From the NCBI GenBank assembly GCA_963422705.1, contig OY730443.1, positions 3,169,394 to 3,233,393 on the forward strand: a DNA stretch of 64,000 nt. Reading direction: 5' to 3'. The notes beneath the pieces are model-generated. The model had not been told where the DNA came from. It worked only from the letters and a program-made list of their open reading frames with translations, and did not search any database. Below are positions 5,773 to 58,700 of this stretch, piece by piece. Position numbers and translations under genes: made by a program. The first letter of the stretch is position 1, and each line of letters opens with the position of its first letter. Origin of the DNA: Candidatus Poribacteria bacterium (GTDB taxonomy: Bacteria; Poribacteria; WGA-4E; WGA-3G).

Positions 5773-5903
5773 GCGGTAACAGCAAAGTGGTTTCACACAT
5801 GGTAGCTTACCACTTCCGACTGGAAGAAATATCCGCGAATTAAAATTGATTTCCTTAACGATTTTTTGTAGAATAAAGGCGAGCACCTGTAAGCAGAGTT
5901 TGA

Positions 5904-26549: not shown

Positions 26550-26996
26550 GGAGAATTGTAGTAGATGCTGAAAATAAGGGGACATTAGCGTATCAATTTT
26601 GTCGACAGGACGAGCGTCGCCGCAAGGTAACGTATCTGCCTCATCACTTGTTAGGGGGTGATGTACCATGAAAACTTATTCGTATCAATGTAGAGATTCA
26701 TCCAATTGTATTCGGCTTGGCAACTTTCTTGACGATATGTGGCAAGTGGATATGTATTTCCATAAGCGGCAGCGTCAACAGGATAAAGACGGATTATCAT
26801 GCGATGCGCGCACACGTGATTAAGTTGAAGCGGTGCCCCCCGGCATTGGAATGTTTTGCCGAGTCAAGTCCTCTAAGAGGAAATCAAACGTATTTACGCG
26901 GGACATCCGCGTTTTTTCAATAAATCTGGCGGTAACCCCATATCAAACCGCAGTTGCTATGAAACCGAAGCTGACCTTTTAGGGTGTGGCTATCAC
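26550..26996 (+). mobile_element. MITE/PATE-like internal-deletion derivative of the IS200/IS605-like element at 43.7 kb
   Basis: Left part matches that element's left end (LE) and tnpB 5' end (cgtatcaa, then ATGAAAACTTAT...cttgacgatatgtggcaagtg). The junction is at a shared aaacc, followed by a right end (RE) matching accgcagttgctatgaaaccgaagc...ctatcac. Flanked on the left by TTGAC. Confidence 0.6.
26669..26821 (+). pseudogene. tnpB: tnpB 5' fragment (51 codons) inside the MITE-like element
   Basis: MKTYSYQ...LGNFLDDMWQVDMYFHKRQRQQ parallels the N-terminus of TnpB at 43857 (MKTYKYP...IGNQLDDMWQVHVYFHKWQRH). Confidence 0.6.
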
Positions 26997-27050
26997 TTGA
27001 CATATTGCTCCTTAGGTGATATACTAATTCATTAAAGAAGGAGATTCCCT

Positions 27051-28638: not shown

Positions 28639-31467
28639 ATGCGTTTTATTGCTGTTATCGTTTTCTTAATTGGGGTCGCGATTGCGATTGGGTACTTCGC
28701 ATATCAAAATCTGGGCGGCTTTGCGTCCACCAGCCTGGTTCGTTGGCTCATCGTTATTTTTGCGGTATTGTTGGGGAGCCTCATTGCGTTCGCAGCTTCA
28801 GTCATCCGATATCGGATTCCGAAAGCGGATGTTGCGCTTATTAGGACGGGGGGCTCCCGGGAAAAAATTCGTGTCACCGGCGGACTCTGGGTAAACACGA
28901 TTATTCATGAAATCAAAGAAGTTTCTCTCAATACCATGCGCATTGAGGTGGTTCGCGAGGGGCCAGAAGCGCTAATCACCTACGACTTCAACCGTGGAGA
29001 TGTTGAAGTCGTTTTTTACCTTAAGGTCGAGCCTGTAGAGGACGGTATCTTACGCGCAGCACAAGCACTCGGCGATAAATCTATGACGCCAGAAACCGTC
29101 CGTGAACTGATAGAACCTAAGCTTGAGGGGGCACTACGCAGTGTTGCCGCCGAAAGTGACATACAAGAGCTCTTGCAGAAACGACAAGAATTCGCTGATA
29201 AAGTACAAGCCACATGTGGCGAAGACCTGGAAGCACAAAATGGGTTGACACTTGAAACTGTCTCCATTATCCGCGTCGATCAGACACCCGTTGAAACATT
29301 GGATGCCGATAACCGTTTTGACGCCGTCGGTATCCGGGAAATTACTGAAATTACAGCCGAGCAGGAACGCGAAAAAACACGCATTGTTCAAGAGAAAGAT
29401 GTAGCAATCGCTCAAATTGAGATGGATGCACGCGTCCGGAAGCTTGAAATCGAACAGGAACAGTCCTGGGCAGAGTCAGATCAGCAGAAGAATATCTCTA
29501 TTTATGCAGCTGAACGGGAAGCCGAGACACTCAAATTTCAGTTTGAGATGGAGCAAGGCGTCCAAGAACGTGAATATGAGATGAAGCAAGAGGTTGAACG
29601 CGCACGCATCACACAGGAACAAGTCGTCCAAGAACGCGAAATTGAGATGAACCGGGATGTTGAAGTCGCCCGCGTCCAACAAGAACAGATTGTCGCTGAA
29701 CGCGAAATTGAGAAAAACCTTATTGTTGAAACGCAACAGATTGAACAATCCAAAGTTGTTCAACTTGCCGAAATTGAGCAGCATCTTATCGTGCAACTGC
29801 AGAAAATTGAGCAGGAACAGAGCATCGCTGTTCGTGATATAGAGAAGGAGTTATTCGTAGAGAAGGCGCGTATTGCGCAAGAAGAGGGTGTGATGCTGCG
29901 TGATATTGAGCGTGATTTACTTGTTCAGACGGAGCGTTTTAGTCAAGAGCAACAGGTTCAGCAGCGTGAGATAGAAAAGAATCTGGTTGTGGAGACAGCC
30001 CAAATCGAGCAGCTTCGGCAAGTAGAACTAGCCGAGATTGCGAAAATGCTAACGGTAGAGATAACGCGCATTGCGCAGCAACAGCAGGTGGAGACGCGCG
30101 ATATAGAGAAGGAGTTATTCGTAGAGAAGGCGCGTATTGCGCAAGAAGAGGGTGTGATGCTGCGTGATATTGAGCGTGATTTACTTGTTCAGACGGAGCG
30201 TTTTAGTCAAGAGCAACAGGTTCAGCAGCGTGAGATAGAAAAGAATCTTGTCGTGGAGACAGCCCAAATCGAGCAGCTTCGGCAAGTGGAACTGGCCGAG
30301 ATTGCGAAAATGCTAACGGTAGAGATAACGCGCATTGCGCAGCAACAGCAGGTGGAGACGCGCGATATAGAGAAGGAGTTATTCGTAGAGAAGGCGCGTA
30401 TTGCGCAAGAAGAGGGTGTGATGCTGCGTGATATTGAGCGTGATTTACTTGTTCAGACGGAGCGCTTTAGTCAAGAGCAACAGGTTCAGCAGCGTGAGAT
30501 AGAAAAGAATCTTGTCGTGGAGACAGCCCAAATCGAGCAGCTTCGGCAAGTGGAACTGGCCGAGATTGCGAAAATGCTAACGGTAGAGATAACGCGCATT
30601 GCGCAGCAACAGCAGGTGGAGACGCGCGATATAGAGAAGGAGTTATTCGTAGAGAAGGCGCGTATTGCGCAAGAAGAGGGTGTGATGCTGCGTGATATTG
30701 AGCGTGATTTACTTGTTCAGACAGAGCGTTTTAGTCAAGAGCAACAGGTTCAGCAGCGTGAGATAGAAAAGAATCTGGTTGTGGAGACAGCCCAAATCGA
30801 GCAGCTTCGGCAAGTGGAACTAGCCGAGATTGCGAAAATGCTAACAGTAGAGCAATCCCGGATTGGCCAGGAATTGCGCGTGGTGTTGACTGATGAGGAT
30901 AGAAAAATCGATGTTGCCAATAAACAGCAGTTGACAGCCCTGGCCGAAAAAGAGCAGCTGGTTGCAGAGGCTGAACGGATGGGTGCCGAAGTAGAGGTTA
31001 CCGCGACTGAACAGCGTGGAGAGGCAGAATGGCAGCGTGAAGTGGCAATCATCGGAGCGGAAGCGCAGGCACAACCAATTGAACGTCTCGCCGACGCGGT
31101 GCTTGCTGAAGCACGCGCCAAAGCACAGGGAGATATGGCAGATTACGAGGCACGAAACGTTGCTGAGCAGCGGGTTCTCGTACAGGAAGCCATCTTAGAA
31201 CTCATTGACGAACTCCCTGATATTTTTGAAGAAATGATGAAACCTGTTGAGAAAATCGACAGCATTAAGATTTTGGATATGGGGAACAATGATGGGCAAC
31301 GCGGTATCACACGTAGCAATATGGGACGTCTCGCAAATGCCTTGCTTGATACCGGCGCAATTTCACCGATGTTAAAGGAATTGTTCAACTTCGCCGATGT
31401 AGATGCGCAACAAATTACGGATAAGATTGCTGAATATCTCGCCGACTTGGTGAATCGCCCCAGTTAA
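28639..31467 (+). CDS. Flotillin/SPFH (band 7, YqiK-like) membrane protein with an expanded coiled-coil repeat region
   Basis: N-terminal TM helix plus SPFH-like segment (LIRTGGSREKIRVTGGLWVNTIIHEIKEVSLNTMRIEV). Long E/Q/R-rich heptad region containing an 88-aa unit repeated about 4 times. Confidence 0.65.
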   Translation: MRFIAVIVFLIGVAIAIGYFAYQNLGGFASTSLVRWLIVIFAVLLGSLIAFAASVIRYRIPKADVALIRTGGSREKIRVTGGLWVNTIIHEIKEVSLNTMRIEVVREGPEALITYDFNRGDVEVVFYLKVEPVEDGILRAAQALGDKSMTPETVRELIEPKLEGALRSVAAESDIQELLQKRQEFADKVQATCGEDLEAQNGLTLETVSIIRVDQTPVETLDADNRFDAVGIREITEITAEQEREKTRIVQEKDVAIAQIEMDARVRKLEIEQEQSWAESDQQKNISIYAAEREAETLKFQFEMEQGVQEREYEMKQEVERARITQEQVVQEREIEMNRDVEVARVQQEQIVAEREIEKNLIVETQQIEQSKVVQLAEIEQHLIVQLQKIEQEQSIAVRDIEKELFVEKARIAQEEGVMLRDIERDLLVQTERFSQEQQVQQREIEKNLVVETAQIEQLRQVELAEIAKMLTVEITRIAQQQQVETRDIEKELFVEKARIAQEEGVMLRDIERDLLVQTERFSQEQQVQQREIEKNLVVETAQIEQLRQVELAEIAKMLTVEITRIAQQQQVETRDIEKELFVEKARIAQEEGVMLRDIERDLLVQTERFSQEQQVQQREIEKNLVVETAQIEQLRQVELAEIAKMLTVEITRIAQQQQVETRDIEKELFVEKARIAQEEGVMLRDIERDLLVQTERFSQEQQVQQREIEKNLVVETAQIEQLRQVELAEIAKMLTVEQSRIGQELRVVLTDEDRKIDVANKQQLTALAEKEQLVAEAERMGAEVEVTATEQRGEAEWQREVAIIGAEAQAQPIERLADAVLAEARAKAQGDMADYEARNVAEQRVLVQEAILELIDELPDIFEEMMKPVEKIDSIKILDMGNNDGQRGITRSNMGRLANALLDTGAISPMLKELFNFADVDAQQITDKIAEYLADLVNRPS
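29836..30855 (+). repeat. 264-bp near-perfect tandem repeat x about 3.9 inside the flotillin-like gene
   Basis: Unit starts at 29836, 30100, 30364 and 30628 (gatatagagaaggagttattcgtagagaaggcgcg...), with only a few SNPs between copies. Confidence 0.9.
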
Positions 31468-43613: not shown

Positions 43614-44182
43614 TTCTATGAATGGTTCCTTTATTTTATCTGTTTTCAGGGTTTACGGGCATTCGTTTGTTTTGCCCAATCCTTTAGGTTTGGGATATAA
43701 GCCCGCTAAGGGCCTAATCCTTGTGAAATAAATTTGACTTTTCTGCTAAAAATGTGATATCATATTCGTATCAAGTTGGCAGACATGAACAGCGTTACCA
43801 CTTGGTAGCGTGTCTGCCTACCCACTAGGGGTTTAAGACTTGAAACTTGATAGTCCATGAAAACCTATAAATACCCGCTTGGGAAACAATCTAATACGAT
43901 GCGCATTGGAAATCAGCTTGACGATATGTGGCAGGTGCATGTGTATTTCCATAAGTGGCAGCGTCACCGGTATAAATATGGTTTGCCGTATGCCAACTAC
44001 GCTGCAATGTGTCAACATGCATGCATATTGAAACGAACCACACATCCACATTGGAAGTTGTTGCCAAGCCAAGCCATCCAAGCAGAGCTAGAACGAATTG
44101 ATAATGCGTATCAAAGGTTCTTTAATAAACTGGGAGGTAACCCCCATATCAAACCTCGCCATAAGTTTAAGTCTATCACGCT

Positions 44183-44288
44183 GAAACAAACTGGATTTAA
44201 ACTGACTGATAACCGTATTACACTCACTTTTCGTCGAAACAAACTGGATTTAAACTGACTGATAACCGTATTACACTCACTTTTCGTC
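44183..44288 (+). repeat. 53-bp perfect tandem duplication (gaaacaaactggatttaaactgactgataaccgtattacactcacttttcgtc x2) that frameshifts tnpB
   Basis: Copy 1 is 44183..44235 and copy 2 is 44236..44288. 53 is not a multiple of 3, and a TAA lies just after the junction. Confidence 0.9.
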
Positions 44289-44668
44289 AGTGGGATAAAG
44301 GGAAGTGGCGATTTGATAAAGTGCCAACTACGTTTCATAAGCACCGCCAGTGGCATGGGACTCTCCGTCGTATCACAATCAAATGTGATAATTGTGGCGA
44401 CTATTGGCTTTACATCATAACGGATGACACCGATTTTAAACCGCTGCCGACAACAGGTAAAAGCGTTGGGGCAGACTTCGGAATGAAAGACGCGTACTTG
44501 ACACTTAGCACGGGTGAGAAGATACAACACCCCGAACCTTTGAAACAGTCCTTGAACAAACTTCGGACTCTCAATAAAGCGTTTTCTCGTAAAGTTAAAG
44601 GTTCTGGCAACTGGTGGCGATGTGTCAGGCAACTTGCACGTCTGTATCGGAAAATTAGCAACCACCGC

Positions 44669-44691
44669 GAAACGGCGGTTTCGCCCTACGC
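44669..44691 (+). repeat. 23-nt hairpin mini-repeat gaaacggcggtttcgccctacgc, copy 1, in-frame inside tnpB-1 (encodes ..ETAVSPYA..)
   Basis: Identical 23-mer found four times in the window. Stem gaaac/gtttc with loop ggcgg. Absent from the aligned position of the second TnpB. Confidence 0.85.
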
Positions 44692-44949
44692 TAAAGATTT
44701 TCACTGGCAACTGGCAAGTGAACTTTGTAAAAAGTTTTCTTGCTTTGTCCTTGAGACGTTGAACCTTGACGGCATGAAACGACTGTGGGGGCGTAAAGTC
44801 TCGGACCTCGCCTTCTACCAGTTCGTTGAGATATTGGAATATAAGTGCAGTAAACATAAACGTATGAGGAAACAAATCGGACAATGGACGCCGACAACGA
44901 AGCCGTGTTCAGATTGTGGGTATCACAACAAAGAACTAAGACTTTCAGA

Positions 44950-45171
44950 TAGGCAGTGGACATGCCCCGACTGTGGTCCACACCACGACAGAGACATCAA
45001 CGCTGCGATAAACATTTTGCGGGCAGGGATAGCCGTCACTTGACGATATGCCTGTAGAAAACTACAGGGAAATGCCCGTAGGTGGAGCGACAGTAAGACG
45101 GTGGACACTTTGAGAAAACCGCAGTTGCTATGAAACCGAAGCCCCACGCTTTAGCGTGTGGGTGCTATCAC
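44950..45171 (+). ncRNA. Candidate TnpB-associated reRNA/omegaRNA scaffold (3' end of tnpB plus RE)
   Basis: By analogy with IS200/IS605 TnpB systems, the guide RNA derives from the tnpB 3' end through the RE boundary (…ctatcac at 45171). The 5' boundary is a guess. Confidence 0.3.
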
Positions 45172-45600
45172 GAAAGTATAATATAGAATGTCCGATGTGT
45201 CCAGAATGATTTTGTCCGAATGAGTTATCGTAGGTTTTAAAAGGAGTGATACCGTTCCCAATGAGAACCTTGCAGGCGCGCTTGCCAAGTGCGCAGTTTG
45301 AGACAGCTCCGGTGAAGATAAATGTCGCGGTATTTTTCTACTACACTGTAATTCTCGACTAGAAAGTCAATAACCCCCGACTTCAGTCGGGGGCTTGTGC
45401 GAAGCGTATACCAAACGTTCACTCCACAAGTTAAACGATTTTCTACAGTAAAATATCGCTTTATCTGGGCGTGGTGGCCTAAACAATGTTTCGGATACTC
45501 CCCTCGTCCGATTCACGCTACGATATTGCGCTCTGGAAGGGGCAATATACAACCCGTAAGGGAGATTACAAACGATGTTTGTTCCGGTGACGAGTCAAAC
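45172..45600 (+). ncRNA. Candidate omegaRNA for the downstream IsrB-like gene (about 400-nt ORF-poor structured region)
   Basis: Lies immediately 5' of, and overlapping, the IsrB-like start, as in IscB/IsrB loci. Contains a strong hairpin cccccgac-ttca-gtcggggg (45374..45393). No convincing protein ORF. Confidence 0.35.
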
Positions 45601-46375
45601 AGGTGCCTTGTTGATGCCGACGCGTGCGAACAAGGCGGGCATGCTGATTAAGAAAGGTTTCGCCACGCCCTATTGGTCAAATGGGATATTCTGTATCCGG
45701 CTTAACTATGCTACCGAAGCCGCATACACACAAGATATCGTCGTCGGTGTAGAACCCGGTAGCAAGAAAGAAGGCTTTACCGTCACATCAGCATCTCATA
45801 CCTATTTGAATGTTCAGGCAGACGCTCACGTCGGTGTCGGTAAGAAAGTGGCGAAGCGTCGAGAGTTGCGTAGAAGTCGGCGTTCACGAAAGTGTCCGAA
45901 TCGCAAGAATAGAACCAACCGTCTTGCGAATAGAGCGCGTATCCCCGCAGGCACACGTGCGAGATGGGACTGGAAACTTCGGATATTGGATTGGTTGTCC
46001 AAACTGTATCCGGTTAGCCACGTTTGTGTTGAGGATATTAAGGCACGGACAATAGAACGTGCGAAGAAGTGGAACACCTCCTTTAGTCCGCTTCAAGTTG
46101 GTAAACAGTGGTTCTATCGCGAAATCCGTAAACGGTGGGAACTGTTCACTTTACAAGGGTGGGAGACGAAAGAAATACGAGAGAGGTTAGGTCTCAAGAA
46201 GTCTTCAAAGAAACTATCGGAACCCTTTGATGCGCATTGCGTAGATTCTTGGTGTCTGGCACATCATACCGTAGGCGGTTTGGATATACCCGATAACACG
46301 TCGCTTCCGAAACGGCGGTTTCGCCCTACGCTTGTGTATCTCACCGATACCGATAAAACGCAGAGAGTTGCATAG
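45575..46375 (+). CDS. Compact IsrB-like (HNH-less IscB) OMEGA nuclease, 266 aa
   Basis: N-terminal PLMP-like domain (GALLMPTRANKAGMLIKKGFATPYW). RuvC-I IVVGVEPGSKKEGFTV. Arg-rich bridge helix KRRELRRSRRSRKCPNRKNRTNR. RuvC-II VSHVCVEDIKA. RuvC-III FDAHCVDSWCLAHH. No CxxC/HNH insert between RuvC-II and RuvC-III. Confidence 0.6.
   Translation: MFVPVTSQTGALLMPTRANKAGMLIKKGFATPYWSNGIFCIRLNYATEAAYTQDIVVGVEPGSKKEGFTVTSASHTYLNVQADAHVGVGKKVAKRRELRRSRRSRKCPNRKNRTNRLANRARIPAGTRARWDWKLRILDWLSKLYPVSHVCVEDIKARTIERAKKWNTSFSPLQVGKQWFYREIRKRWELFTLQGWETKEIRERLGLKKSSKKLSEPFDAHCVDSWCLAHHTVGGLDIPDNTSLPKRRFRPTLVYLTDTDKTQRVA
46309..46331 (+). repeat. Same 23-nt hairpin mini-repeat, copy 2, in-frame near the 3' end of the IsrB-like gene (encodes ..KRRFRPTL..)
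   Basis: Exact 23-mer match. Confidence 0.85.
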
Positions 46376-46485
46376 GCAACAGGAAGCGAAAGGCGGTAAA
46401 CGCACACGGGTGGGTGGCACTGTATTAGGGAAAGGCTTAGTCAAAAATACATTGCTTAATCATGTCAAATACGGTTTAACCCGCC

Positions 46486-46508
46486 GAAACGGCGGTTTCG
46501 CCCTACGC
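46486..46508 (+). repeat. Same 23-nt hairpin mini-repeat, copy 3, intergenic downstream of the IsrB-like gene
   Basis: Exact 23-mer match. Confidence 0.85.
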
Positions 46509-46936
46509 TCTTGCTGGCGTTAACGCAAATGGTTTGTTTTCGATATACAGTATGGGAAACAAACGATTAACCACAGGGGCGAAGCGTTCTGATTTTCGCG
46601 TGCTAACACGCCTCAACTTTTACTATAGGAGCGGTGTTTCCTCCCCTGAATGAATTCAGGGGGTTCCACACCGAAGAAAATGATGAATCGAAATCATAAT
46701 ACCTCCCGGTAGGAGGAGTCTTCTCTTTGATTTCCGCGTCGTCCAGATTCCTGCCGTCTCGAGAGCGTCACGACATGTCGAAAACGAAATGGGCTAAACT
46801 ACGCTGTATTAACACTTGACATTTTTGAAATTTTGTAGTATCTTTATTAGGAGTTTTCAACAAACCTGCAAAAAGATGTGCTCGTTCAATCGCATGGGGA
46901 GTGCTCTAATTAGAACATAAGGAGAGGAACGAAACT

Positions 46937-48142
46937 TTGATGAAAAAGGGTGTCATCATTCCATTGGCTTTGCTACTGCTACTAATGACTGGTTTTGGCT
47001 GTGATAGGAAACAGAAAGGGCCGAGCAATCTATCCGTCGGCAAAAGTAAACTGGTTGATAGTGGGCTTACACTAGAAGCTGTTAAACATCTCAAAAAAGC
47101 GGAACAAGAAGAGGAGAATAAATTAGAACCCCGTGTCCTGCTCTTGATTGCGTACTCACAGGGAATCGCTGATAAGAGCGCGATGAACCACGGCGTTGAG
47201 GCAGAATACAAAAATCAGAGGGAACGGCGGATAGCGGAGCTTACCGAAGCTGAAATGAACGCCATCCTTCAAATTCTCAGTACGCCGTCCCGCATTAGGA
47301 AAACAGGGCTGCAAATCTTCGTTGATAAGGGGGCTGAAGTAGTGCCTCTACTCTTGGATAGCCTTGTCAAAGGACAGTATCCTGGATTGCATCCAAATTT
47401 TACAGATATATTGGTAAAAATTGGCAGTGAAGGACTCCCGCAAATTTTAGAGACGGTGCGCGCAGAAATGATACATGCCCCAATTAAGGTTAAACTGGTG
47501 GAAGTCATCGCAGGAATTGGGGACAGGCAGGCCGTCGCGGCGTTAAAATCGATGCAAAAATCAACTTTAGATGCAGCGGTGGCGATGACGATTAACACCA
47601 CACTCTATCAACTTGGAGAAATCTCGTATAAAACAGAAATTCTTTCAGGGTTAAAGCATAGCAATGTTGAAGTCCGACGCGCTTCCGCGAAGGCGATGGT
47701 GAATATCAGTGATGTCCCACCCAAAACCCTTATCACGCGTTTGACAGATAGGGATTCGCAAATGGTAACCGATTTGGTAAAGGCGTTAGCAATTCATAGA
47801 GACGAGACGGCTGTTGCACCGATGGTAGATATCCTAACCGGTGAATTAGACAAAGACGCAAAGCAAGCGGCAATCAATACGCTGGAAATCTATGTTGAGA
47901 ATAAACTCGCCAAAACTTTAGCTCGCCGCGCTACCGAGCTCCTTACGAGTGGAAAGGTAAGCAATGCGAGGAATCGACTCTATCTTGCGCAACTCCTCAA
48001 ACGTGAACCGTTGAGAAATCAAATTGAGGCAATAAAAACCTTTGAAGATCTTGGGTATAAACTCCATGAATACTACTCAATTGAGGAAAGCCAGCTCGTC
48101 AAAACGACGTTGAAGCAGCTACTGGATCTGCTTGGAAATTAA
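46937..48142 (+). CDS. HEAT/PBS-lyase-like repeat lipoprotein (paralog A)
   Basis: Signal peptide plus Cys. Repeated helical hairpins. Co-linear similarity to the 48774 paralog (…EPRVLLLIAYSQG…, …VVPLLLDSLV…). Confidence 0.5.
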   Translation: MMKKGVIIPLALLLLLMTGFGCDRKQKGPSNLSVGKSKLVDSGLTLEAVKHLKKAEQEEENKLEPRVLLLIAYSQGIADKSAMNHGVEAEYKNQRERRIAELTEAEMNAILQILSTPSRIRKTGLQIFVDKGAEVVPLLLDSLVKGQYPGLHPNFTDILVKIGSEGLPQILETVRAEMIHAPIKVKLVEVIAGIGDRQAVAALKSMQKSTLDAAVAMTINTTLYQLGEISYKTEILSGLKHSNVEVRRASAKAMVNISDVPPKTLITRLTDRDSQMVTDLVKALAIHRDETAVAPMVDILTGELDKDAKQAAINTLEIYVENKLAKTLARRATELLTSGKVSNARNRLYLAQLLKREPLRNQIEAIKTFEDLGYKLHEYYSIEESQLVKTTLKQLLDLLGN

Positions 48143-48773: not shown

Positions 48774-50000
48774 TTGAGGAGGAAAGTTAAAGGGAACATG
48801 AAAACAGTTTTAACGATACTACTAGTTATAACCGTTATGGTTGTTGGCTGTCAGCAAAAACCGGTTATCACGCAACTTGAAGTTGGGCGAGGTAAATTGC
48901 TGGAGGCGGGGCTCGCCTTAGAAGCGATAGAGCACCTCAAGCGGGCAGAGGAAGAAGAAGTAAACAAGTTTGAACCTCGGGCACTTCTCCTGATTGCTTA
49001 TAGCTATGCGCTTTTAGAAGGCATCGCAGAAGTTCATGATGTAGAGAGTCAGTACCAGGAGGAACGCACTCGTCGGGTTACGCAATTAAGCGAGTTTGAA
49101 ATTAAGGAAATCCTGAAAATTATTAACCAACGGCACCGCGTTCAAAAGGCTGCAATACAGCTCTTGATTGATAAAGGGGAAGATGTCGTTCCACTTCTTG
49201 TGGACAATCTGGTTAGCGGACGTTATCAGAACGTACACCGCGATTTTGCTCAAATCCTCACCGCCATTGGTTCTAAAGGACTTGATGAATTAATGACAGC
49301 TGTCACGGACGCGAATACGCCAATCACTGTTAAGGTTCAATTCGTGCGAATCATAGGCGACATCGGAGATTCGTCTGCCACATCCGGGTTAGAATCTGTT
49401 ATGGAGACAAGCATGAACGCGGGGTTAAAGATGGAACTTAACGCCGCTCTCTATCTCCTTGGGAATACAAAGTATAAGGAAAATATCATTGCCGGACTTA
49501 CTGATAGCAATCTCAACGTTCGACAAGCGGCCGCAAAATCGATGGCAGTCCTCAACGAACCACCTACTGCCGCAATGGTAACAGCACTTAAGGATTCTGA
49601 TGATACTGTGCGCAGAGACATCGCTAAAGCTCTTCAGAAACATCCGCATCCCAGCGCTATTGACAATCTCATCGAATTGCTCACCAGCAATGCAAGTCCC
49701 AATACAAAGCTAATCGGGGTTAATACGTTGAATCTTTACGCAGAGAATGGCATTGCAAACGGGTTAGCCGGACGTTTAATCGCCTTGTTAACTAACCCTG
49801 ATGTCGTTAATCACGAAGACAGGATTCGCATTGTCCAACTTCTTAAAAAGCCACCCTTGCTCAAGCAAATTGAAGAGGCGGATAAGTACGACAATCTGCC
49901 CTCTCAGGTTTATGATTACTATGCTAACAAGGAAACCAATGGTATGGTAAAAGAGGTGCTGAATGAATTGCTGCTCTTAATACCCGAGTTACCAGAGTAG
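48774..50000 (+). CDS. HEAT/PBS-lyase-like repeat lipoprotein (paralog B)
   Basis: Lipobox VVGC. Same architecture as paralog A (…EPRALLLIAYSYA…, …VVPLLVDNLV…). Confidence 0.5.
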   Translation: MRRKVKGNMKTVLTILLVITVMVVGCQQKPVITQLEVGRGKLLEAGLALEAIEHLKRAEEEEVNKFEPRALLLIAYSYALLEGIAEVHDVESQYQEERTRRVTQLSEFEIKEILKIINQRHRVQKAAIQLLIDKGEDVVPLLVDNLVSGRYQNVHRDFAQILTAIGSKGLDELMTAVTDANTPITVKVQFVRIIGDIGDSSATSGLESVMETSMNAGLKMELNAALYLLGNTKYKENIIAGLTDSNLNVRQAAAKSMAVLNEPPTAAMVTALKDSDDTVRRDIAKALQKHPHPSAIDNLIELLTSNASPNTKLIGVNTLNLYAENGIANGLAGRLIALLTNPDVVNHEDRIRIVQLLKKPPLLKQIEEADKYDNLPSQVYDYYANKETNGMVKEVLNELLLLIPELPE

Positions 50001-52672: not shown

Positions 52673-53041
52673 GTGATTTGGTGTACCAAGTATCGTCGTA
52701 AGGTTTTGGATACACAGATACAAGGACGCCTGAAACACCTCATACGAGAAAAACAGGACGCGTCTGAATATCAAATCTGTGAGGGTGAAACTCACCCTGA
52801 ACCTGTCCATTTGCTAATAGAAATACCGCCAATACATGCTATTGATAAAATCGTTGGCAAAATCAAAGGTTATACCGCGGCAAGCATGTTGCTTGCTACC
52901 TTTAAAGTTTTGCGAGAAGAATATCCGTGCCTGAAAAGTCGTTTGCCGTCTTTATGGACACGTTCAAAGTTTGTCAGTTCCTGTGGTGGCGTAACGCTCC
53001 AAGTCATCAAGGACTATATTGAAGCTCAAAGTGGACAATGA
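52673..53041 (+). CDS. tnpA: IS200/IS605 HUH (Y1) transposase TnpA
   Basis: HVIWCTKYRRKVL…HLLIEIPP… motif pattern of IS200 TnpA. Homology continues upstream to about 52625 (NDKTSNKTLSSCQYHV) with no in-frame ATG, and the ATG at 52629 is in the +1 frame. Confidence 0.8.
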   Translation: MIWCTKYRRKVLDTQIQGRLKHLIREKQDASEYQICEGETHPEPVHLLIEIPPIHAIDKIVGKIKGYTAASMLLATFKVLREEYPCLKSRLPSLWTRSKFVSSCGGVTLQVIKDYIEAQSGQ

Positions 53042-54268
53042 GAAAAGCCAGCAAGTTCAAACTTCAAAATCAATCGAACATCGTCAAAATCGGCAATATG
53101 CTTGACGATATGTGGCAGATACACCAGCAATTCATGCTTTTACAGCGTAGGTTTTAAGGTGATGATAAGTTGCATGAGAAATCTCCGACGAGATTATTAA
53201 GGGATTGTCAAAAACAGCAGAAGCTCAACCGACTAAGCACGACGAAAAATCGCATGTTCGGCTTTCAACCTGCCCGCATCTCGCATCAACAAACATATTG
53301 TGAAACTCAAGAAGCGCACAAAACCACATTGGGCAGACTTGCCGAGTCAAGTTGTGCAAGACGTTGTTCTGCGATATGGCAAATCACAAGACGCATTTTT
53401 CCAAAACATAGAAGAACGCAAAGCCGGTAAGACAAGACGTAAAGTCGGTAAACCGAAAATCAAACCGAGACACAAATACACCTCTATGACTTTCACACAA
53501 AGCGTAGGGCGAAACCGCCGTTTCGCGGGCTACACACTTGAAAAAAATCGTATCAAAATCAACGGTATAGATACGTGGTTCTCCTTCCACAAACACCGTG
53601 AAATCAACGGGACAATCAAGACGATAACACTCAAACGGGACAGGTGCGGTGATTATTGGATATGCTTTTCGTGCGCGAATGTTGACGATTCCGAACCGAA
53701 ACTCAAGACGGGTAAGAGCGCAGGGTTTGATTACGGAAACAAAACATTCCTTACAAGCGACGAAGGCAACAAGATAGAATCTCCGCAGTTTTTCAAACAC
53801 TCCCTGAAAACGTTGCGATGCCTGAGCAAAGCCCTGAGTCGTAAAGTCAAAGGTTCTAACAACTATTATCGTGCGTGTCGTGCTTTGGCGAGGCACCACA
53901 GAAAAGTCGCGCGCCAAAGAGAAGAGTGGCAGTGGAAACTTGCCACCGAACTTTGCACGGCGTTTGATATACTCTGTTTTGAAACACTGAATCTTGACGG
54001 TATGAAACGCCTTTGGGGACGCAAAGTCTCTGAACACGCAGAGGATCAGTTCATACAGATATTGGAACAGAAGTGTGCAAAGCATGGTAAAAAACTTGAG
54101 CGAATCAGTCAGTGGACACCTACAACAAAACCATGCAGTGATTGCGGATACCATAATCAAGAACTCTCTCTTTCTGATAGACAGTGGACTTGTCCCGACT
54201 GTGGTTCTCATCACGATAGAGACGTCAACGCTGCTATCAATATCAAACGGGCAGGCTTGGCTGCCTAA
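53038..54268 (+). pseudogene. tnpB: TnpB gene interrupted near codon 40 by a foreign about 130-nt segment (N-terminal fragment 53038..53160, remainder 53300..54268)
   Basis: N-terminal fragment MRKASKFKLQNQSNIVKIGNMLDDMWQIHQQ… then a stop. The remainder resumes at the equivalent of about residue 65 (KLKKRTKPHW…) and runs to CSDCGYHNQELSLSDRQWTCPDCGSHHDRDVNAAINI. Confidence 0.75.
53502..53524 (-). repeat. Same 23-nt hairpin mini-repeat, copy 4 (reverse orientation), in-frame inside tnpB-2 (encodes ..GRNRRFAG..)
   Basis: Exact reverse-complement 23-mer match. Absent from the aligned position of TnpB-1. Confidence 0.85.
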
Positions 54269-54488
54269 AGTGGAGCGACAATGAGACGGGGTTTCTCTCA
54301 GAGAAAAGCGCCGTCGCTACGAAGCACAAGCCCCTACCTTCAGGGAGTGGGTACCTATGCTGCTATCAATATCAAACGGGCAGGCTTGGCTGCCTAAAGT
54401 GGAGCGACAATGAGACGGGGTTTCTCTCAGAGAAAAGCGCCGTCGCTACGAAGCACAAGCCCCTACCTTCAGGGAGTGGGTACCTATG
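54231..54488 (+). repeat. 129-bp perfect tandem duplication spanning the last 12 codons of tnpB-2 plus the RE
   Basis: Copy 1 is 54231..54359 and copy 2 is 54360..54488. Each begins ctgctatcaatatcaaacgggcaggcttggctgcctaaagtggagcgacaatgagacgg… and ends …gggtacctatg. Confidence 0.9.
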
Positions 54489-55760: not shown

Positions 55761-58700
55761 TCACGCTTCCGTCAACTCAGACGGTAACCCCTCAATAATT
55801 TCAGTCGACGCAACGCTCACATAAACCAGGCGTTTTATCACGGTAATAAGTTCATCCGGTTCTGCAAACCACTCATTTGCGTCATTGATGATGCCACTCT
55901 CCTTGTCCCGCGTCACCTTGTACCTATCAATTAACCACTCCAGGGGCGTCCGTCCGTTAACCACATACCGATGCGCCTCCGAAGGGATACCCGATACGCG
56001 CGTCTCCTCATTGATGATAAGCGTCTCTTTGCTCACCTTATCCGAAAAACGCATCGACTTCGAACTCAACTGAAAATTCCCCGTCGGGGCATCCACGGAA
56101 AGGGGGTACGCCTCACACGTCTCATAATTCAGGTGTAGGCGCGCTAGCGCCGCACCCGCATCCGAAAACGCGCTGAAATCAGGCGCAAACGGAATGCGCG
56201 GCAACATCTTGGTGACATCATTCGCGAACTTTTCACGATACACCGACGAATGCAATACGCCGTAAACATAATCGAAAATCGCATCCTTCGTGATGCCGTC
56301 ATCCCGGTAATGCGCACGGAACGCCGCCAGCGCCGTATCCGATATGTTGTCAAGACGCCGGCCACTGATTGGGTATTCCCACCGCGGAAAGCATTGGCAC
56401 CCATTGTTTAAACCGCATTCCGGCATCGTATCCGTGATAAGCGCGGAAAACGGCTTTTTGGAACCGATACCCGGCACACATATCACCCGGTTTTCACTCG
56501 ACAAGGGAGGAAACATCCTGTCCATCCAGTGTTTACTCTGTGCGAGCGTATAATCCGCGTAATAATTCGTGGGCACAAACGGGCGATAGCTCACCTTTCG
56601 AAGGTATTCTGCTTTAAAGTCAACCCTTTTCTTTTGTTCGAGTCTCTTTTTCAGCGCTGCTCCCCACTTAATATTCTGTCTTGCGTTGTGCCGGTGTACC
56701 ACCTCATCCACAGTGAGTTCAGGATTTGCCTCAAGTTCAGCAATTGCTGCGCGGTACTCTTTCGTCATGCGGCGGGCGTTGTCGAGGCATGCGTGTCGTG
56801 AGAAGTTGTGGAGGTAGGCGTCCCTACCCGTTGCATACCCGCGTGAATATAACTTAAATATCGCATCGTCCGCCTTGCCCACCTTTGTCTCCTTGGTGCC
56901 CATCGGGTAAAACCGTGCAAACGCATCGCTCCGCTGGTTAACCCAATCGTGATGAGCATTCGGCGTAATTGTCTGCCAATCGCGAACCCCTTTGATGGAG
57001 CCAGCATCCCGCAACGCCGTTAGCTTCTCCTCGCGCGTGAGGTAATCCCCGATATCGCGGTATCGGATTTCACACCTTTTCGTCGTTTTCAGTGCGCTAA
57101 ACTTCTGCTGTTTTTGGCAATCCGTTGATAATCTCGTCGGAGATGCTTTCGTCGTGCTTAGTCGGTTAAGCTTCTGCTGTTTTTGGCAATCCGTTGATAA
57201 TCTCGTCGGAGATGCTTTCGTCGTGCTTAGTCGGTTAAGCTTCTGCTGTTTTTGGCAATCCGTTGATAATCTCGTCGGAGATGCTTTCGTCGTGCTTAGT
57301 CGGTTAAGCTTCTGCTGTTTTTGGCAATCCGTTGATAATCTCGTCGGAGATTTCTCATGTTTTTGTCGTGCTAAGCGATGGGGGTTTTTTACCAAGATGG
57401 TGATGGCAACCGGGGCGCGGGAACCGCTGCCGAAAGCATTTCCACCTTCCGCACGTCGCCGTTCTCCAGAGGTCTCGCATCCCCTCGAAGGTGTAGCACG
57501 TAGATAGAACTGAATTCGGAGGCGAGACATGCCCGGAGCCCCGCATCGGCGTTCCCATCAACCCACGAACCGTTGGTAACGAAGGCGATAACCCCCTCTT
57601 CGCCAATTCTGTCGCTTGCCCACCGGAGTGCCAGTTTGTAGGTATCGTAGAGACTATTCTTATTGGTTACTGTCGATGCCGCGGCATAGGTGTCCCGGAT
57701 GCGTTTTTCAAGCGCCGGATAGTGCACGTTAGGGTTGTCATTGGCAGCACTCTTCTGCCCCACGGACCACGGTGGGTTACCGACGATGACACGGATACGC
57801 CGTTCCTGTTGATTCTCGGTGCGTTCGTTGTTATCCATCAGCCAGAGCAGGGGTTCTGTCTCTCTGTCCGGAATTGGTGTTGTGTTGAGCGTGAAAGTAT
57901 CGGTGAGGGCGATGCCGTTGAACGGTTGTTTCTCAAGTCCCGTCTGCGCACCCATGGACGCAGCCCCTTCAGGGCGCCGGCTGCGGAAGGCTTCGGCGAT
58001 ATTGATGGCGGCGATGTAATAAGCGAGGAGTACGATTTCGTTGGCGTGTAGTTCCTCCCGATATTTCCGTTCCACGTCCGCGGGCGCGATGAGTTCAGAT
58101 TGCAGCAGGCGCGCCAGAAAGGTGCCAACGCCGGCGAACGGTTCTAGGACATGAACACCTTCATCGGAGAGGCTTCGTCCGAATTCATCGGTGAGCACGT
58201 CGTCGGCGCTTTTCAAAATGAAGTCGACGATGTCCACCGGCGTGTAGACGATACCGAGTCGTTCCGCCTCTTGTTTCAGCGCCGTGGCGAAAAATTTCTC
58301 GTAGAGTTCCAACAGCACGCGCTGTTTCCCCGCGCTGTTATCGATGCCGCGGGCGCGCATGCGGACGCTGTCGTAAAAGCCTTCCAAGTCCCGCGTCTCA
58401 TCTAAGAGTCCGAATTCGGCGAAATCGGCCCGGAGCGTGTCCAGCGCTATCGCCACCGGGTTGCTAGAGGCGAATACGTCATTCTCAAAGAGTGCGTCGA
58501 AAACGGGATTTGTGATGATATGCTGTGCCATCATATCGATGGCGTCGCCGCGAGTGATAGCGTCGTTTATCGCGCTTTTGAGTTCGGCATGGAATGCGTC
58601 AAACCATTCTTGCAGCGCCGTGTTTGCTGGATGTCGCAGTAATCCCTCAATGCGTGCGACGACGCGCAAGAAAATATCGGCGACGTCCTTCGCCCAGCTC

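Follow-up and report, generated by a model that had tools for sequence, protein, structure and literature searches.

A probably decayed IsrB transposon copy with a covarying upstream RNA in Candidatus Poribacteria

The locus analyzed here lies in a genome of Candidatus Poribacteria, a sponge symbiont, and comprises a gene of the IsrB type, a structured RNA directly upstream of it and the two ends of an IS200/IS605 transposon. The window, i.e. the whole stretch of DNA under study, is 64,000 nucleotides (nt) long (assembly GCA_963422705.1, contig OY730443.1, positions 3,169,394–3,233,393, forward strand), and all coordinates are window positions unless a related locus is named. An initial annotation of this stretch had proposed a compact IsrB-like nuclease, encoded by an open reading frame (ORF) of 266 amino acids (aa), as a good candidate for a miniature RNA-guided enzyme. 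Families were searched in Pfam, NCBIfam, Rfam and the solved structures of the Protein Data Bank (PDB). Related loci number 308 in species-representative genomes; 80 of them were retrieved from Poribacteria genomes and compared by blastn. The features of the element, in which omegaRNA denotes the putative guide-bearing RNA, are listed below.

45346..45365, plus strand: putative guide segment of the omegaRNA, 20 nt; the flank directly 5′ of the scaffold, its length borrowed from the 20-nt guide of the Desulfovirgula thermocuniculi IsrB, DtIsrB (PMC9581776)
45366..45574, plus strand: omegaRNA scaffold, 209 nt, identified by homology and covariation; also the omegaRNA-proximal transposon end
45575..46307, plus strand: IsrB coding segment 1, aa 1–244, with PLMP, RuvC-I (D60E), bridge helix, RuvC-II (E153) and RuvC-III (H221, D224)
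46308..46332, plus strand: 25-nt hairpin insert 1, CGAAACGGCGGTTTCGCCCTACGCT, frameshifting
46333..46484, plus strand: IsrB coding segment 2, aa 245–295, in the +1 frame of the window
46485..46509, plus strand: second copy of the same 25-nt hairpin insert (insert 2), again frameshifting
46510..46653, plus strand: IsrB coding segment 3, aa 296–342 and stop, in the +2 frame; covers the beta-rich, TI-like C-terminal region
46640..46686, plus strand: ORF-distal transposon end, with the hairpin CCCCTGAAT-g-AATTCAGGGG, a conserved CCGAAGA..., then TGATGA; ATGA at 46683–46686

The IsrB gene and its interruptions

The 266-aa ORF (45575..46375, plus strand) is real in the window. Profile searches and the alignment with the IsrB structure 8DMB agree with its first description as a protein with a PLMP N-terminus (the motif is LLMPT here), RuvC parts I, II and III, an Arg-rich bridge helix (KRRELRRSRRSRK) and no HNH domain. 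The Pfam family RRXRR (PF14239) matches aa 3–156 above its cut-off (E=7e-27), and Pfam gave no significant second family in the ORF. In a single-sequence search of all solved structures, the best match was 8DMB (E=6.9e-30, aa 3–281), and a family profile raises this match to E=1.5e-39 (aa 3–293). IscB structures match the N-terminal ~120–170 residues only (~155 for most); the part with PLMP, RuvC-I and bridge helix that they have in common with the ORF (about 115 aa) gives E-values of 1e-6 to 1e-10. Likewise, the NCBIfam model guided_IscB (NF040563) is covered only from profile position 3 to 157 of 314, with a score of 79.9 bits where the cut-off is 175. Neither Pfam at E<=0.01 nor NCBIfam gave an HNH family in the protein; the spacing of ~68 aa between E153 and H221 aligns with the short HNH linker of 8DMB, and the HNH insertion within RuvC by which IscB is recognized is lacking. 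We consider the assignment of the ORF to IsrB, an HNH-less relative of IscB, to be correct because RRXRR and 8DMB are matched, the IscB model is matched by half only and HNH is absent.

The length of 266 aa, which had been read as shorter than is typical of IsrB, is an artefact of two frameshifting insertions. The ORF is short because two 25-nt inserts shift the frame: on three-frame translation, the homologue-like sequence moves to the +1 frame after insert 1 and to the +2 frame after insert 2. The breaks fall after aa 244 and aa 295, and the C-terminal region is not in one frame with the rest. Excision of exactly 46308–46332 and 46485–46509 restores one ORF of 342 aa (45575..46653 minus 50 nt), which bears out the initial suspicion that the C-terminus might be artificially short. 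A mini-repeat had also been seen correctly before the end of the ORF, with sequence continuing in the +1 frame. It is not an in-frame insertion, as had been stated, but 25 nt long, present twice and frameshifting each time.

Many proteins of Candidatus Poribacteria, each 342 aa long, match the repaired protein at 89% identity and 100% coverage. A homologue search with the repaired protein yielded 2480 matches, some of which are annotated as 'RRXRR domain-containing protein'. Among the best 120 of these 2480 matches, the median length is 342 aa and the shortest protein has 329 aa. The repaired protein aligns with homologues without a gap at either excision junction, its C-terminus being collinear end to end with the 342-aa proteins. 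In the DNA of intact copies, the sequence is uninterrupted at site 1 (...ACGCTTC running directly into TGTGTATC...) and at site 2 (...CCCG(A) running directly into CTTGCTGG...), where insert 2 adds a net 25 nt. The junctions read straight through in intact copies, and the inserts are therefore 25 nt long, out of frame and without target duplication.

In the 266-aa product, homologous sequence ends at residue 244 and the last 22 residues consist of insert and out-of-frame sequence. By the DtIsrB offset, the part missing after residue 244 corresponds to the TI domain, the WED-like region and the loop of the phosphate lock. Public records include the exact 266-aa sequence, from a contig of 4,001,648 nt, but not the repaired one; therefore, the inserts belong to the deposited assembly. 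A contig in sequencing run ERR11641160, from the source sample, is identical to part of the window. An AlphaFold2 model of the protein (18-sequence alignment) was too poor for a fold search, with a predicted local distance difference score (pLDDT) of 44 and a predicted template modeling score (pTM) of 0.26.

The RuvC-I motif of the window copy reads GVEPG, with Glu at position 60 (D60E). This residue had been noted at the outset as a warning sign, and the comparison bears it out: G[VI]DPGS is found in 118 of the 120 homologues and Glu in none. RuvC-II (CVEDI, E153) and RuvC-III (HCVDS, H221 and D224) are kept. The family thus has the complete RuvC catalytic set, which in the window copy fails at RuvC-I. 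Among 152 alignment columns that are invariant in 17 relatives, the window copy deviates at three (D60E, T148S and E174Q) and the four closest relatives at none. The frameshifts, together with a D60E private to this copy, appear to be the signature of a pseudogene, and the window IsrB protein is in all likelihood dead.

The upstream RNA and the ends of the element

A conserved, covarying structured RNA lies upstream of isrB. A structured region had been proposed for 45172..45600, and its downstream part is conserved, at 45366–45574. The upstream part, 45172–45365, is conserved in none of the 80 loci and folds no better than shuffled sequence (z=+0.68), in contrast to the 209-nt scaffold, which folds better than its shuffles (z=-2.54). 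Window positions 45366–45589 were aligned with 65 distinct loci (66 sequences), and the structure model combines RNAalifold helices with three helices added by hand. The resulting 37 pairs form 7 helices and are paired in 94.9% of alignment cells, compared to 34–46% when partners are slid by 1–3 columns. Both sides change in 22 pairs, covering 218 cells (29–63 when slid), and none of 500 shuffles reaches the pairing and covariation values of the alignment. Helix 3, a proposed pseudoknot, shows one-sided changes only. Noise kept an all-against-all covariation scan of the alignment from defining pseudoknots. In the window copy, 34 of the 37 consensus pairs are formed, the family mean being 34.6, and the three pairs broken in it all lie in helix 4, where one of the positions is A in 64 of the 65 other sequences. 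A search of the whole window at Rfam gathering thresholds returned nothing.

The boundaries of the element are sharp. In blastn comparisons with the 80 related loci, similarity begins abruptly at 45361–45366 and ends at 46687–46694. Across the 5′ flanks of 62 loci, the sequence up to a conserved GTCA start is unrelated between copies, which is the pattern expected of a guide derived from the flank, and we infer such a guide here. At the other end, conservation among 46 aligned downstream regions stops directly after (T)GATGA. Subterminal hairpins are located at 45374–45393 and 46643–46662. The element extends from 45366 to ~46686 (~1.27 kb without the inserts) and contains no tnpA. Its family is multi-copy, with the 308 related loci lying in unrelated flanks and up to about 9–10 of the 80 retrieved loci coming from a single genome. 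Sharp ends, subterminal hairpins, absence of target duplication, an ATGA motif and a multitude of sites are all seen here, as is characteristic of non-autonomous IS200/IS605 elements.

The target-adjacent motif (TAM) of DtIsrB is NTGA (PMC9581776), and that of GstIscB from Geobacillus is TTCAT, or ATGAA when reverse-complemented (PMC10055086). The distal ATGA of the window element fits the former and, read as its reverse complement, gives the TCAT core of the latter. The omegaRNA that lies upstream of iscB has its limit at the right end (RE) of the transposon, the TAM is held in common with TnpA, and iscB seldom occurs linked to tnpA (PMC10055086). By its layout of guide flank, omegaRNA, isrB, distal end and TAM-like motif, the locus is a non-autonomous IS200/IS605 element. 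A literature search for IS200 in Poribacteria found nothing.

Shine-Dalgarno-like GGAG, GAGG or AGGA occurs in 23 of 60 distinct flanks, compared to 8.6% of random 15-mers (p=3e-10), with the sites 18 to 4 nt upstream of the element start (loci L001–L079; ~5775–5790 in most). Because such a motif precedes the element and ATGA follows it, many IsrB copies seem to be inserted between the ribosome-binding site of a host gene and its ATG.

The hairpin insert and the neighboring elements

The sequence that interrupts isrB recurs in TnpB genes of the window. The features of these genes and of their surroundings are as follows.

43857..45043, plus strand: TnpB pseudogene (TnpB#2), ORFs 43857..44258 and 44321..45043; Pfam OrfB_IS605, Cas12f1-like TNB
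44669..44692, plus strand: 24-nt insert in TnpB#2, in frame, adding ETAVSPYA
45044..45170, plus strand: 3′ end of the TnpB#2 element, a putative omegaRNA region of its own (by the known TnpB arrangement), with the end hairpin GCCCCACGC-ttta-GCGTGTGGG
45171..45345, no strand: non-element spacer between the two insertion sequence (IS) elements, unmatched in the 80 related loci
52673..53041, plus strand: IS200-type Y1 TnpA; Pfam Y1_Tnp (E=1.5e-27) and NCBIfam transpos_IS200 (E=2.8e-28), above cut-off
53501..53524, minus strand: 24-nt insert in a third TnpB gene, in frame, adding SVGRNRRF

Exact copies of CGAAACGGCGGTTTCGCCCTACGCT number four in the window, where none is expected; they start at 44668, 46308 and 46485 (plus strand) and at 53501 (minus strand). 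The core is the 24-nt sequence GAAACGGCGGTTTCGCCCTACGCT, and the IsrB unit of 25 nt carries an extra 5′ C, (C)GAAACGGCGGTTTCGCCCTACGCT. It forms a hairpin with a stem of 6–7 bp and GGCG in the loop; as DNA, the folding energy is -4.6 to -7.1 kcal/mol. Compared to the intact TnpB of related locus L063, both window TnpBs carry exactly 8 additional residues, which correspond to the 24-nt core in two orientations. All four window copies are inside TnpB or IsrB genes, with clean junctions relative to intact homologues and no target duplication; elements with nucleases of the OMEGA type (obligate mobile element-guided activity) make up an estimated 8% or so of the window. Identical dispersed copies of 21–27 nt, a hairpin and the absence of target duplication are properties of small mobile hairpin repeats, and the sequence has them all. 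The 24-mer has no match with up to 5 mismatches in the 80 loci (990 kb), no exact match in 84 loci, and none in metagenome contigs of the Joint Genome Institute (JGI), by either an exact or a loop-degenerate scan.

ETAVSPYA is present at the same site in the TnpB paralogues P0136, P0138, P0142 and P0144 of the source contig and in P0139 of another contig, and is absent from P0141 and P0143 (source contig) and P0140 (another contig). P0141 and P0143, which lack the insert, fall within a group of insert-bearing TnpBs in a neighbor-joining tree. The insert-bearing TnpBs are monophyletic in none of 300 bootstraps, and the presence of the insert departs from the phylogeny. Such a distribution is consistent with mobility, in the form of precise loss or of repeated gain at one site, but the same pattern would result if paralogues had recombined with each other. 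It is conceivable, though rather unlikely in our estimate, that the 24/25-mer represents a new kind of ultra-small mobile element in Poribacteria, which inserts and excises seamlessly without target duplication, prefers TnpB and IsrB genes and perhaps rides on the single-strand chemistry of Y1 TnpA. If so, it would be a parasite of a parasite that inactivates genes for RNA-guided nucleases.

Small palindromic inserts of other sequences were seen in the omegaRNA region of other Poribacteria IsrB elements. One is 25 nt long (L032:5852–5879, GCGAATGC..GCATTCGC); a different mini-hairpin insert of 41 nt is found at L061:5942–5981. In L035 (4757–6004), the isrB gene is broken by ~1.25 kb.

The TnpB pseudogene is upstream of the IsrB element in the same orientation, as first described, but the two are not in contact: ~195 nt of unrelated DNA lie between the end of the TnpB element at ~45170 and the start of the IsrB element at 45366. 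Similarity to other TnpB element ends stops at ~45163–45175, including in an alignment with two other window copies. A perfect 53-nt tandem duplication (44183–44288) shifts the frame and splits the gene, which becomes a 369-aa ORF when one 53-nt copy and the 24-nt insert are removed; it is 52–57% identical to the intact TnpB of L063. The Y1 TnpA gene, 6 kb away in another element, is a candidate mobilizer in trans of the IS200/IS605 elements in the window.

That second IS200/IS605 element (52673–54487) consists of the Y1 tnpA and a frameshifted tnpB (~53040–54268, with the frame change near the N-terminus), and its 3′ end is present as a perfect 129-nt tandem duplication (54230–54358 and 54359–54487). 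A TnpB-derived mini-element at 26665–27000 retains the 5′ end, the first ~40 codons and the 3′ end, with the interior deleted; 27 nt of its 3′ end are identical to 45116–45142, and it resembles a non-autonomous derivative of the palindrome-associated transposable element (PATE) kind. Elsewhere in the window, there are near-perfect, apparently coding tandem repeats at 29833–30924 (four units of ~264 nt, 86–98% identical) and 57078–57351 (three units of 69 nt, 95% identical). Two adjacent paralogous genes at 46937–48142 and 48774–50000 encode proteins of 401 and 408 aa, which look alike throughout and both start with a hydrophobic, signal-like N-terminus.

Interpretation and comparison with known systems

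We interpret the locus as a decaying copy of a non-autonomous IS200/IS605 transposon, which carries an omegaRNA and an IsrB nickase gene and belongs to a multi-copy family of Candidatus Poribacteria; the probability that we give this interpretation is about 0.85. In intact copies, a Y1 TnpA would move the element in trans, the 209-nt scaffold would be transcribed together with ~20 nt of upstream flank as its guide, and the 342-aa IsrB would bind this RNA and nick the empty donor site beside an ATGA-type TAM. In the window copy, the two 25-nt hairpin insertions and the Asp-to-Glu change in RuvC-I would kill the protein, and the nearly intact scaffold could at most serve intact paralogues in trans.

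Several points weigh against this interpretation. The profile alignment to DtIsrB stops at aa 293, and TI homology of the C-terminal ~50 aa is unsupported by sequence. Glu at RuvC-I might retain some activity, and a bypass of the 25-nt inserts, at the RNA level or in translation, is formally conceivable. The match of the scaffold to the HEARO RNA (RF02033) in a permissive scan is non-significant (12.1 bits against a gathering threshold of 83, E=6.9); it is full-length and lies exactly on 45366..45550, which is compatible with an omegaRNA and is no evidence by itself. No sigma-70-like promoter was found on the plus strand upstream of the RNA. RNA-level removal of the inserts, intron-like or by recoding, was also considered as a candidate and dropped, as it had no supporting feature.

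Another view, which we regard as possible yet distinctly less probable, is that only the protein gene is dead and that the locus is a functional stand-alone omegaRNA gene. Its RNA would guide presumed intact IsrB paralogues to the element's own empty site, so that the element is retained. The number of consensus pairs kept, which equals the family mean, is consistent with this view, as is the presence of multiple family copies per genome; stand-alone omegaRNAs that act with IscB in trans have been noted (PMC9581776, citing earlier work). However, all three broken pairs fall in helix 4, including the position that is otherwise nearly always A, a promoter-like site was not found upstream, and an intact IsrB in the source genome is an assumption.

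Far less probable is a view in which errors of assembly or sequencing produced the frameshifts in a gene that is really intact. The perfect tandem duplications of 53 nt and 129 nt could cast doubt on the assembly. However, the inserts are a specific 24/25-nt sequence at four unrelated sites, its in-frame translation occurs in several full-length TnpB paralogues, both on the 4.0-Mb source contig and on a further one, and is missing from others, and sequencing errors do not create identical 25-mer insertions. The public protein records contradict the notion that the insert was planted or arose artefactually.

The weakest proposal, an IsrB-like effector of 266 aa that is compact by nature, functions in the absence of the C-terminal TI domain and would represent a new miniature RNA-guided nuclease, is scarcely credible: the ORF has been called as a gene in the public assembly and retains the PLMP, the bridge helix and the RuvC-II and RuvC-III residues, but its final 22 residues come from insert and out-of-frame sequence, the +1 and then the +2 frame continue the homologue sequence gaplessly once the 25-mers are excised, none of the best 120 homologues is below 329 aa, D60E is private to the window copy, and in DtIsrB deletion of TI beta7 (the last TI strand), like that of PLMP, abolishes nicking (PMC9581776).

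The locus is an ordinary decayed member of the known, abundant and already annotated RRXRR/IsrB family. As a miniature nuclease it is a poor candidate, with a length that derives from frameshifts, a mutated catalytic Asp and abundant intact relatives of 342 aa. A false lead is thereby removed, as there is no IsrB of less than 300 aa at this locus, and a search for mini-insertions is advisable before any short ORF of an OMEGA locus is called compact. The intact 342-aa relatives, with their 209-nt scaffold (262 nt in DtIsrB) and apparent ATGA TAM, may provide new IsrB orthologues. The 24/25-nt insert is the only part of the locus that is possibly instructive, with regard to the movement of very small repeats and the targeting of transposon genes.

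Among known repeats, this insert comes closest to the small dispersed repeats (SDRs) of cyanobacteria (Elhai et al. 2008, cited in PMC3116915) and to REP elements. Elhai et al. are said to have described SDRs as hairpins of 21–27 nt, present in identical dispersed copies within mobile elements and ORFs and without target duplication. The 24/25-mer resembles SDRs in being tiny, hairpin-forming, dispersed and inside mobile elements and ORFs; unlike them, it occurs in a different phylum and has a different sequence, and the comparison is based on the four copies examined. Repetitive extragenic palindromes (REPs) have a GTAG head and are typically extragenic. The reverse complement of the 24/25-mer begins AGC-GTAG-G, which is reminiscent of this head; unlike in the pairing of REPs with REP-associated tyrosine transposases (RAYTs), no RAYT gene was seen alongside it.

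Among RNA-guided nucleases, IscB and its HEARO RNA (OgeuIscB 7XHT/7UTN; RF02033; NF040563) have the N-terminal PLMP, RuvC-I and bridge helix in common with the window protein. Unlike them, the window protein is without HNH, and its scaffold scores far below the HEARO gathering threshold. The IscB elements of the ISGst5 type (Meers et al., PMC10055086) are organized in a similar way, with an omegaRNA region upstream of the nuclease that is bounded by the transposon end, as here. At their opposite end stands a conserved TAM, TTCAT (ATGAA as reverse complement), where the window element has ATGA, and they too contain no tnpA, with TnpA and PATE-like derivatives located elsewhere in the genome. 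They differ in that IsrB replaces IscB in the window element, which belongs to a different phylum.

The closest counterpart is DtIsrB (8DMB; Hirano et al. 2022, PMC9581776), with which the window protein shares the domain order of PLMP, RuvC-I, bridge helix, a short REC linker, RuvC-II, a short HNH linker, RuvC-III and C-terminal region, as well as the size class (342 aa when repaired, compared to about 353 aa). In both systems, the omegaRNA is encoded directly upstream with its guide (putative in the window) at the 5′ end, and the window element ends at an xTGA motif that is in line with the NTGA TAM of DtIsrB. Unlike DtIsrB, the window copy is twice frameshifted and carries D60E; the protein is clearly divergent, and its scaffold is the shorter of the two.

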